NCBI GenBank assembly: GCA_048885865.1
Contig: JBHLLF010000025.1
Coordinates: forward strand, 4,179 to 37,816
Length of the DNA: 33,638 nucleotides
Origin: Candidatus Hermodarchaeota archaeon
GTDB lineage: Archaea; Asgardarchaeota; Thorarchaeia; Thorarchaeales; Thorarchaeaceae
Direction of reading: 5' to 3'
Shown here piece by piece: positions 3,529 to 5,550 of this stretch (the stretch's first letter is position 1; the number at the start of each line of letters is the position of its first letter). Under the pieces are notes generated by a model. It saw nothing but the letters and a program-made list of their open reading frames with translations. It had not been told where the DNA came from and searched no databases. Both the position numbers and the translations under genes were made by a program.

Positions 3529-3954
3529 CTACCATTCTTCACCAAGTTCAAGTATCTCGAACTCTGCATCATATAGTCCTGGAATGCTCTCTATGGTGCT
3601 TCTAATAGTTGGCTCCTTCTGCCTGATTTCATCTGCTGCAAAATATACCTCATAGACACATCGATTCTCCTCGAAGCAGAATCCTGTAGTGAACAGCACC
3701 TTGAGGTCATGAGCCTTAAACAGCTGAGTCATAGTTTGCATGAGGGCAGGATTGACCTTCTCGACCTCGAGCCTGACACGTGCCCCACCTTCCTTCATCA
3801 TCGGAATGAGTCTTATCTCACCCGACCTTTCAAAATAGATTACCATTGCAGCTTTCATGTCACCAAGTTCTGGATTATTGAAGAAGTCCTCTGGAAGGGT
3901 AATCGCCCGCTTCTTCTTGACATCTGCAATCATACCTTTCGTTAGCCCGGCCAC
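3529..3954 (-). CDS. AbrB/SpoVT-like DNA-binding domain plus ACT-like domain protein
   Basis: N-terminal 'ADVKKKRAITLPEDF..GEIRLIPM' swapped-hairpin pattern; C-terminal ferredoxin-like ACT pattern containing 'TTGFCFEENRCVYEVYF'. Confidence 0.6.
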   Translation of the reverse strand: MAGLTKGMIADVKKKRAITLPEDFFNNPELGDMKAAMVIYFERSGEIRLIPMMKEGGARVRLEVEKVNPALMQTMTQLFKAHDLKVLFTTGFCFEENRCVYEVYFAADEIRQKEPTIRSTIESIPGLYDAEFEILELGEEW

Positions 3955-4103: not shown

Positions 4104-4226
4104 ATGGGAAAGGAAGGAGAATTATACGTCTGTGACATCTGTCAGCAGGTAGTGCGCGTAGTGAAATACGGCGCTGGAACCCTGGTTTGCTGTGGTCAAC
4201 CGATGAGGCTGTTTGAGGACGACTAG
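4104..4226 (+). CDS. Stand-alone desulforedoxin-like Fe(Cys)4 protein (40 aa; not in ORF track)
   Basis: Translated by hand: MGKEGELYVCDICQQVVRVVKYGAGTLVCCGQPMRLFEDD*. It has the YxCxxC...GxGxLVCCG.xM desulforedoxin motif and an AGGAG RBS at 4088-4092. Confidence 0.9.
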   Translation: MGKEGELYVCDICQQVVRVVKYGAGTLVCCGQPMRLFEDD

Positions 4227-4275
4227 AAGGAAGGCTGACCTGCGAATATTCTCATGCAGAAGAGTGCTGCTTGAT

Positions 4276-4286
4276 AATCTTTATAT
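4276..4286 (+). promoter_or_regulatory. Putative TATA box of the first RPB5-like gene
   Basis: AATCTTTATAT about 47 nt upstream of ATG 4333; the identical 11-mer precedes the second copy. Confidence 0.5.
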
Positions 4287-4332
4287 GATAAGCTGAATCG
4301 GCGACTGCTAGACCTTCTTTGGATGTGTTTCT

Positions 4333-4887
4333 ATGATAGAGTTCCCAAGCAATGTGATAAAGACTAGGAACCTCCTCACCCTTCGAGCTTTTGAGGTTGA
4401 GGAATTGCTCGAATATGAGAATCGTTTTGAGATGCATCCGATTAAGAAATTAGAAGATGGGACAATCAAGTCCGTTGTCTGGATTCTGAAAGAGCCTCGC
4501 GTCGTAGGGATTGCGCTTATCAAAGATTTGGTCAAGAAGATGGAAGAGGTTCAAGCGCTTGAGGGCATCTTGGTAGGCGGTTCTAGATTCACACCAGCCG
4601 CAAAGAAGCATGCCAGGGACATGAGGGTGGAACTTGTCGTGGGTAACTATGCATCATTTGATCTGTTCTCACATGAACTCGTTCCTCCGCATAGCATTGC
4701 TGATGAAGATGAAGTGTCTCTAGTCCTAGAGTATTATGGCATAACCCGCGACCAAATTCCTCGAATCCTAAGAAACGACCCAGCTGTGAAAGTACTAGGA
4801 GCCAAACCTGGGCAAGTAGTCAGAATTGAACGAGATAGTGATACTGCTGGAGGAGTCTATTATTACAGACTAGTAGTCACCTCCTAG
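4333..4887 (+). CDS. rpo5: RNA polymerase subunit Rpo5/RPB5 homolog with N-terminal jaw (restriction-endonuclease-like) domain, copy 1
   Basis: C-terminal assembly domain 'HELVPPH..QIPRILRNDPAVKVLGAKPGQVVRIERDSDTAG..YYRLV'. The ~105-aa N-terminal domain has 'EPRVVGIALIKDLVKKM..GILVGGSRFTPAAK'. Confidence 0.9.
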   Translation: MIEFPSNVIKTRNLLTLRAFEVEELLEYENRFEMHPIKKLEDGTIKSVVWILKEPRVVGIALIKDLVKKMEEVQALEGILVGGSRFTPAAKKHARDMRVELVVGNYASFDLFSHELVPPHSIADEDEVSLVLEYYGITRDQIPRILRNDPAVKVLGAKPGQVVRIERDSDTAGGVYYYRLVVTS

Positions 4888-4938
4888 AATCAAATCTTCT
4901 TTCAAATACTGCTTCATTTGCAAAAATCCCTAGTTGGG

Positions 4939-4949
4939 AATCTTTATAT
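4939..4949 (+). promoter_or_regulatory. Putative TATA box of the second RPB5-like gene
   Basis: AATCTTTATAT about 41 nt upstream of GTG 4990, identical to 4276-4286. Confidence 0.5.
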
Positions 4950-4989
4950 CTCGCGCCTAGGATTGCGTTGTAATTTAGGGTGTTTTCTC

Positions 4990-5550
4990 GTGGTTGAATT
5001 CCCGACTTTAGTCATGAAGACCAGAGGTCTCCTTACTCTTAGAGGCTACCTTGTAGAAGAATTGCTGGAATACGAGGACCGGTATGTGATGCATCCTACA
5101 AGGGAGTCTGAAGACGTCACTGTCAAATCAGTAGTATGGATTTTCAAGGTGCCAAAAGTGGTAGGAGTGGCTGTTGTTAGGGAACTAGTGAAGGCGATGG
5201 AGGAGGCTCAAGCACAGGAGGGTATGCTTGTGGGGGGCTCTAGAGTCACTCCAGCATCAAAGAAGCTCGCTCGCGAAATGCGTGTGGAGCTTGTGGAGGG
5301 AGGCTATTCATCATTTGACCTCTTTGGCCACAGTCTTGTTCCGAAACATGTGGTTGCAGATGAGGAAGAGGTTCAACTTGTTCTTGACCACTACGGCATC
5401 AGAAGATCACAGCTGCCTCGAATCTATCGGACTGATGCCGCCGTCAAGGTACTGGGTGCAAAAACAGGCCAGGTGATTCGAATCCAACGTGAGAGTGATA
5501 CTGCAGGGCTCTCCTATTACTATCGTCTGATTGTTGACCCAGGGCGATGA
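4990..5550 (+). CDS. rpo5: RNA polymerase subunit Rpo5/RPB5 homolog with N-terminal jaw domain, copy 2
   Basis: Start revised from 4918 to GTG 4990 because MVEFPTLV aligns with MIEFPSNV of copy 1. Ungapped alignment to copy 1 gives about 124/184 identities by hand count. Motifs 'LRGYLV', 'HSLVPKH', 'QLPRI', 'SDTAG..YYRL'. Confidence 0.9.
   Translation: MVEFPTLVMKTRGLLTLRGYLVEELLEYEDRYVMHPTRESEDVTVKSVVWIFKVPKVVGVAVVRELVKAMEEAQAQEGMLVGGSRVTPASKKLAREMRVELVEGGYSSFDLFGHSLVPKHVVADEEEVQLVLDHYGIRRSQLPRIYRTDAAVKVLGAKTGQVIRIQRESDTAGLSYYYRLIVDPGR

Follow-up and report, generated by a model that had tools for sequence, protein, structure and literature searches.

Archaea are taught as having one RNA polymerase of fixed composition, and a genome that carries two genes for the same polymerase subunit raises the question of what the second gene is for. 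Such a pair, here called rpo5a and rpo5b, lies in the stretch of DNA analysed in this work (hereafter the window), which comprises the 33,638 nucleotides from position 4,179 to 37,816 of contig JBHLLF010000025.1 (assembly GCA_048885865.1, Candidatus Hermodarchaeota archaeon, family Thorarchaeaceae). It corresponds to contig C25 of a metagenome-assembled genome (MAG) of 3.58 Mb, estimated to be 87% complete with 5.3% contamination, and the closest database proteins carry the label Thorarchaeota. Both genes encode full-length RPB5-type subunits, composed of an N-terminal jaw domain followed by a C-terminal assembly domain. From their sequences and those of their relatives, we consider it probable that they are functional paralogs of subunit 5 (Rpo5, also named RpoH or RPB5) of the long, eukaryote type, originated most likely by one old duplication, and that they would give rise to two isoforms of the polymerase.

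The gene rpo5a occupies positions 4333 to 4887 of the + strand, starts with ATG and encodes 184 amino acids, of which approximately the first 105 (positions 4333-4647) constitute the jaw and residues 106 to 184 (4648-4884) the assembly domain. The gene rpo5b follows head to tail on the same contig, 102 nt downstream, at positions 4990 to 5550 (+); it starts with GTG and encodes 186 amino acids, with the N domain at 4990-5304 and the C domain at 5305-5547. The two proteins align without gaps, with 123 identical residues out of 182 (68%; BLASTP, E 4e-87). The preliminary description of the window, made from its letters, had already counted 124 of 184 by hand (about 67%) and had taken the genes for two intact, true paralogs of RNA polymerase subunit 5, an identification borne out by the profile and fold matches presented below. 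A longer frame of copy b, opened by a TTG at position 4918 in the mechanical list of open reading frames (ORFs), was rejected in favour of GTG 4990, because the N-termini of all orthologs align at this GTG, a GGGTG sequence is located 7 nt upstream of it, and the promoter box would otherwise fall inside the frame.

The assembly domain of each copy matches Pfam Rpb5_C (PF01191; 89.3 bits for copy a and 90.1 bits for copy b, cut-off 23.5) and the NCBIfam RpoH equivalog (NF007129; 93.4 and 92.2 bits, respectively, cut-off 83). The likeness to RPB5 extends upstream of this domain. Using phmmer against the chains of the Protein Data Bank (PDB), residues 41-181 of copy a align to residues 65-208 of mammalian RPB5 (9eh1_E), well into the N module. 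A profile built from 43 long-form Rpo5 sequences, the set also used below to assess residue invariance, gave mammalian RPB5 as its top match (E 3e-34, 121 bits), ahead of the short Rpo5 chains of archaea, and in the RPB5 proteins of mammals, plants and fission yeast it extended into the N module (from query residues 28-40 onward, E 3e-34 to 4e-30); the alignment spanned query residues 40-181 on the mammalian protein (chain residues 63 to 208/209) and 28-182 on Arabidopsis NRPB5A. The AlphaFold2 model of copy a has a mean pLDDT (predicted local distance difference test) of 88.5, and 30 of its 33 best Foldseek matches are eukaryotic RPB5 chains, the other three being two RPB5 homologs of African swine fever virus and one unlabelled human Pol III chain. 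Matches with query TM-scores (TMq) of 0.73-0.81 cover most of both proteins, whereas archaeal Rpo5 covers just the last ~75 residues.

Pfam Rpb5_N (PF03871) gave no match, either in a protein search with E up to 0.1 or, at this locus, in the six-frame search of the genome. The N domain scores weakly on families with the restriction-endonuclease fold, namely NA-iREase1 and Mrr_cat (PF04471, cut-off 21; 30.4 bits for copy b and 20.6 bits for copy a). Along the β2/β3 region (residues 37-58) no Asp, Glu or Lys is invariant in the 43 sequences, and by this residue pattern a nuclease activity of the N domain appears unlikely. The jaw of both copies would be an inactivated PD-(D/E)XK fold, continued by the C-terminal assembly domain.

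In eukaryotes RPB5, or RPABC1 (POLR2E; ABC27 in yeast), is common to RNA polymerases I, II and III. The archaeal proteins resemble it (PDB 1dzf, 5xog_E, 8uhd_E, 7vba_E) in joining a PD-(D/E)XK N jaw to a C assembly domain, in aligning through both domains, and in presenting the five residues of the Rpb1 contact and, by motif likeness, a putative counterpart of the DRGY arginine. They differ from it in the size of the N module, about 105 amino acids compared with 142 in yeast, in the lack of an Rpb5_N score, and in being archaeal and encoded by two tandem genes per genome that has one polymerase. The RPB5 N module has been listed as a PD-(D/E)XK fold exclusive to eukaryotes (PMC3424549) and its jaw as found only in eukaryotes (PMC1802627); a passage of a further article describes the N-terminal domain as a eukaryotic addition absent from the archaeal form (PMC3906176). 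With the canonical archaeal Rpo5/RpoH (about 75-85 amino acids; PDB 8cro_H, 4qiw_H, 2waq_H) the proteins share an orthologous C domain, which is above the cut-off of the RpoH equivalog and 53-55% identical to Thermococcales Rpo5 in the fold alignment. Unlike them, the canonical form is devoid of the N-terminal domain (PMC1802627; the same passage of PMC3906176), and in non-Asgard archaea its gene heads the rpoH-rpoB-rpoA cluster (PMC10833476), to which the genes studied here are not linked.

The location of the pair outside the rpo operon, with no rpoB or rpoA gene within the window, had been noticed in the preliminary description and is confirmed by the rest of the genome: the cluster rpoB-rpoA'-rpoA''-L30e-nusA lies on contig C23, and the 660 nt upstream of rpoB are gene-free and contain no rpoH. 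The two genes are the only Rpb5_C matches of this genome in a Pfam six-frame search, and a third, short rpoH was found neither by that search, nor by tblastn with each domain (E up to 10), nor in the list of ORFs upstream of rpoB. Thus, where two or three variants of the subunit had been envisaged, there are two only. The catalytic core is single, with one rpoB match and one rpoA'' match. Linkage to rpoB was looked at in six Asgard genomes. Genes for short Rpo5 (frames of ~80-125 amino acids; G026, G032 and G036) are placed directly upstream of rpoB in all three cases, and those for the long, jaw-bearing Rpo5 are unlinked from it in G030 and G113 (~600 kb; closed or near-closed genomes) and in this genome. 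Throughout the phylum (251 genomes), where long forms are common and short forms appear in several families, almost every genome holds exactly one Rpb5_C match and the short and long forms are almost never found together; hence the long form is taken to be the Rpo5 of the cell. One genome of another Asgard family (G257) has two dispersed long forms about 104 kb apart (C1:150104-150322 and C1:254160-254378), which may represent an independent duplication, and one of a family with mostly short forms (G238, family f9) has two Rpb5_C matches. Some longer relatives match the query in several stretches, as G039:C63:11510-11713 (a 465-residue frame), P0141 (481 amino acids, three stretches), P0163, P0173 and P0161, an arrangement consistent with multiplied jaw-like domains.

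The predicted polymerase-binding surface is intact in both copies. In yeast Rpb5, residues H147, P151, D182, R200 and R212 contact Rpb1, and their mutants are lethal or conditional (Zaros et al., PMC1802627). With a constant offset of 33 they correspond to H114, P118, D149, R167 and R179, all five present in both copies; across the 43 sequences H114, D149, R167 and R179 are invariant and P118 nearly so. When copy b was modelled in complex with Rpo1'' (residues 56-451), the score was 0.70, a mark reached by 58 of 80 solved complexes and by 2 of 110 mismatched pairs, as against 0.00 for the best of three controls; the runs agreed in at least 77% of the contacts, with a partner pLDDT of at least 82, and the modelled interface comprises residues 113-118, 143-151 and 165-182. 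Since RNA polymerase complexes have already been solved, this result may reflect likeness to them, in which case it would not count as independent evidence. The 451-residue Rpo1'' itself bears a lysine-rich N-terminal extension of low complexity and ~55 residues (L005:12757-12920, on contig C23 of this genome), which is common to genus g1, to which this genome belongs, and to G020 of genus g5; in most other genera the extension is missing and the protein starts near residue 55. The only Rpb6 match of the genome (G000:C32:15378-15464) is placed inside a 260-residue open frame, which agrees with the description of long Rpo6 forms in Thorarchaeota (PMC13257274).

Copy b had been said to change conserved residues of the C domain, from HELVP to HSLVP and from DP to DA. 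These substitutions, E115S and P150A, are real; they occur only in one subclade of the genus, position 115 varies elsewhere, and the contact residues are kept, so they are a peculiarity of the subclade and not a trait of copy b. The companion claim, that copy b better keeps the N-terminal RGY, holds. The motif corresponds, by likeness, to the DRGY motif of helix α1, which is invariant in eukaryotes and whose arginine, R26 in yeast, is essential (PMC1802627). The putatively equivalent R18 is invariant; copy b presents LRGY, while copy a reads LRAF in this genome and LR(S/A/D)(Y/F) in most genera. Two positions are diagnostic of the copies across genera: position 19, the glycine of RGY, kept in b and usually replaced in a, and position 113, a glycine in 24 of 26 downstream copies and in one of 26 upstream copies, which mostly have another residue.

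Taking these features together, we propose the following model. Each polymerase would offer one site for Rpo5, on Rpo1''/Rpo1' at the downstream end of the DNA cleft, and therefore the incorporation of a and b would be mutually exclusive. In Pol II the jaw is indeed located at the downstream end of the cleft (PMC1802627). A cell expressing both copies would hold two isoforms of one RNA polymerase in which the lower jaw alone differs, at a ratio set by the two promoters and the strength of the start codons; the single polymerase would thus probably exist in two versions. Both isoforms would probably be fully competent, because sister genera live with a single lineage of the subunit. That both copies have been retained for long, with purifying selection strong on each, suggests that they divide the work to a modest extent, according to condition or partner factor, and not that they form two different enzymes. 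Any specialisation is likely to be subtle, dependent on condition, on partner or on regulation through promoters and start codons, because the lineages probably suffice singly and no consistent physico-chemical distinction separates them.

In accordance with the suggestion that each copy is transcribed separately from a TATA-like 11-mer of its own, a conserved promoter-like element was found for each gene. The transcription factor B recognition element (BRE)/TATA-like box of copy a, TTGATAATCTTTATAT, read from the sequence at positions 4271-4286 (+), ends 47 nt 5' of the ATG, and that of copy b, TTGGGAATCTTTATAT, at positions 4934-4949 (+), ends 41 nt 5' of the GTG and is kept upstream of the copy-b orthologs of the genus. 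The 11-mer AATCTTTATAT, the core of this element, has exactly two occurrences in the window, at 4276-4286 and 4939-4949. The count alone is not significant, at least two matches with one mismatch at most being obtained in 38 of 100 shuffles; the weight of the element comes instead from its placement 41-47 nt before each start codon and from its conservation at the orthologous loci of 16 genera. The consensus of the copy-a orthologs is TTGACAAT(G/C)TTTATAT, at the same distance upstream in all genera examined, and the family-wide form of the copy-b promoter is TTGACAAT(G/C)TTTATA(T/A). A GGTG-type ribosome-binding site is likewise kept across genera for both copies. In the window, the Shine-Dalgarno-like sequence of copy a is GGATG at 4321-4325 (+), about 8 nt 5' of the start, which the alignment of upstream regions across genomes gives as GGGTG in most orthologs; that of copy b is GGGTG at 4978-4982 (+), 7 nt 5' of the GTG, with GGGTG or GGTG at this place in nearly all orthologs. 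The two genes would have separate BRE/TATA promoters for transcription and separate Shine-Dalgarno-like sites for translation. The start codons also separate the copies: the upstream ones use ATG in 24 of 26 pairs and GTG in the other two, and all 26 downstream ones use TTG or GTG.

The pair is not specific to a strain. In a survey of the family (71 genomes, 16 genera) tandem pairs were found in five genera (g1, g3, g5, g9 and g23), the remaining genera having one gene; within genus g1, both copies are present in every genome with a fully assembled locus, including the single-contig genome G004. The locus is single and syntenic in all 16 genera, in the order ribbon-helix-helix (RHH) regulator, conserved gene for a 141-residue protein, rpo5, membrane protein and molybdenum cofactor (MoCF)/CinA-like gene. 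Nor is either copy under relaxed selection, which had been named as a finding that would speak against two working subunits. Pairwise ω (dN/dS) values by the Nei-Gojobori method (NG86) were 0.076 for copy a and 0.068 for copy b in this genus, 0.083 and 0.066 in g5, and about 0.13 for both in g3; overall ω is about 0.06-0.13 for both copies and both domains, with the C domain as the more constrained half in each. Neither copy is decaying. Between paralogs dS is saturated, and protein identity is 60-68%.

Several observations weigh against two functionally distinct isoforms of common origin. Net charge and isoelectric point (pI), calculated per domain, show no consistent shift between the a and b lineages, and with two family-wide diagnostic positions only, there is little evidence that the copies have diverged in function. 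Many genera and some g5 species have lost one copy, with no remnant of a second gene detected at single-copy loci (E up to 1), which indicates that keeping both is dispensable. The approximately unbiased (AU) test on three trees rejects neither a single old duplication (p 0.36) nor duplications in each genus (p 0.24). Finally, the MAG is only 87% complete and carries the contamination given above.

The alternative that fares best concerns the history of the pair, namely that tandem duplication took place several times, independently, at this locus in different genera. The tree with the a and b copies of each genus as sisters is not rejected by the AU test, a constraint that joins the a and b copies of this genus was not rejected either, and the absence of pseudogene remnants at single-copy loci would also fit. 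That tree, however, is 21.6 log-likelihood units below the best one and 13 below the single-duplication tree; in the best maximum-likelihood (ML) tree all the b copies, together with the single genes starting with TTG or GTG, form one clade; and the split in start codon and residue 113 described above runs, with few exceptions, through the five genera. Earlier quick trees were suboptimal, in that constrained trees scored higher. Repeated duplication is accordingly rather doubtful, and one old tandem duplication in the ancestor of this Thorarchaeia family is most likely, as the best fit to these sequences, although statistically unproven.

A second alternative is that the duplication is neutral or serves dosage only, the two proteins being fully equivalent in one and the same polymerase and the second copy being kept by drift or for subunit supply. 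Either lineage is kept singly in sister genera (11 of 16) and in several g5 species, and since sister genera live with a gene of one type, either a or b, each lineage is probably able to serve alone. The lack of a systematic difference in charge or pI and the restriction of family-wide diagnostic residues to two also speak for redundancy. On the other hand, the paralogs have reached saturated dS and 60-68% identity and yet ω does not rise above about 0.13 for both in several genera, a small stoichiometric subunit does not normally keep a neutral duplicate for long, and the a and b lineages retain distinct start-codon types and promoters. We therefore regard mere redundancy as unlikely, though deserving consideration.

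Much less plausible is that one copy is no longer a polymerase subunit and acts as a free factor, for instance by competing for the proteins that bind the jaw or luring them away as a decoy, or by taking part in assembly or regulation. In eukaryotes several factors dock on the RPB5 jaw, among them TFIIB and the RAP30 subunit of TFIIF (PMC13257274), copy a has no RGY glycine in most genera, and copy b of this subclade is changed at E115 and P150, beside contact residues. Both copies, however, have all five Rpb1-contact residues and the C domain as their more constrained half, single-copy genera use either lineage as sole Rpo5, and in the model copy b binds Rpo1'' through the canonical interface, a result that may come from likeness to solved complexes. 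An artefact of assembly or binning, by collapsed strains or a chimeric contig, can practically be dismissed despite the 5.3% estimated contamination, since the copies are merely 68% identical, follow each other head to tail on one contig with 102 nt between them, and are found in the same arrangement in dozens of independent assemblies, including that of G004.

The reading of two polymerase isoforms could be carried further, to two stable holoenzyme variants, each with a jaw that favours particular transcription factor B (TFB) paralogs or a particular setting of promoter or downstream DNA. It would amount to a division of labour by subunit swapping of pre-eukaryotic age, with the lineage appearing as the inventor of the RPB5 jaw; we deem such a system improbable. 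The genome has about 7-8 TFB paralogs (TFIIB repeat), including two tandem pairs (C23 and C55), and a single TATA-binding protein (TBP) (G000 contigs C4, C23, C24, C55, C18, C12; C79). Genus medians of TFIIB-repeat matches tend, weakly, to be higher in genera with two Rpo5 copies, at 10-13 vs 7-14 in the others (Mann-Whitney p 0.045, kinship being ignored), and within g5 the comparison with Rpo5 copy number gives p 0.12; a link between the two numbers is a lead only.

Paralogs of RPB5 are present in trypanosomatids, as RPB5 and RPB5z. Plants, with NRPB5A and the Pol V subunit NRPE5 (PDB 7eu0_E, 8hyj_E), also have at least two genes of the RPB5 family in the same genome, so that polymerase composition could vary, and the plant chains were recovered as homologs over both domains. 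Each plant paralog, however, is paired with a catalytic core of its own (Pol II, IV or V), while here a single core is shared. The parallel with Pol V-specific paralogs drawn in the preliminary description is thus loose, because a genome with one rpoB match and one rpoA'' match provides no distinct polymerases to which the copies could be dedicated, and the sister genera with a single lineage argue for substantial interchangeability. Archaeal TFB and TBP paralogs are likewise a way to diversify transcription with one polymerase, but they are dissociable initiation factors, whereas in this locus it is a core-associated subunit that is duplicated. In the openly searchable full-text literature, subscription papers and supplements excepted, no description was found of a long-form or duplicated Rpo5 in Asgard archaea or of a duplicated core-associated polymerase subunit in archaea, and an earlier description is possible.

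Two neighbours of the pair complete the locus. The gene for the 141-residue protein mentioned above is located at positions 3529-3954 of the - strand; it has no Pfam or NCBIfam match, is 70-100% conserved near rpo5 across most of the family, and shares 35% identity with its counterpart in an order-level relative. Language-model neighbours, with scores below 0.9, provide as a lead only that it might be an AbrB/MazE-like regulator with an ACT domain. Between it and rpo5a, at positions 4104-4226 (+), lies a desulforedoxin-like ORF of 40 amino acids (Desulfoferrod_N, 52 bits), detectable only in the closest relatives within the genus.

This Asgard family has the RPB5 jaw together with two diverged, long-kept versions of the subunit that bears it. 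If the copies are redundant, the finding shrinks to an old gene duplication of modest interest. If both are incorporated, they would constitute a natural example of isoforms that share one catalytic core, in an organism closely related to the ancestor of eukaryotes, and would offer a tractable system of two small genes in which to study the function of the jaw and the paralogy of subunits before the split of Pol I, II and III.

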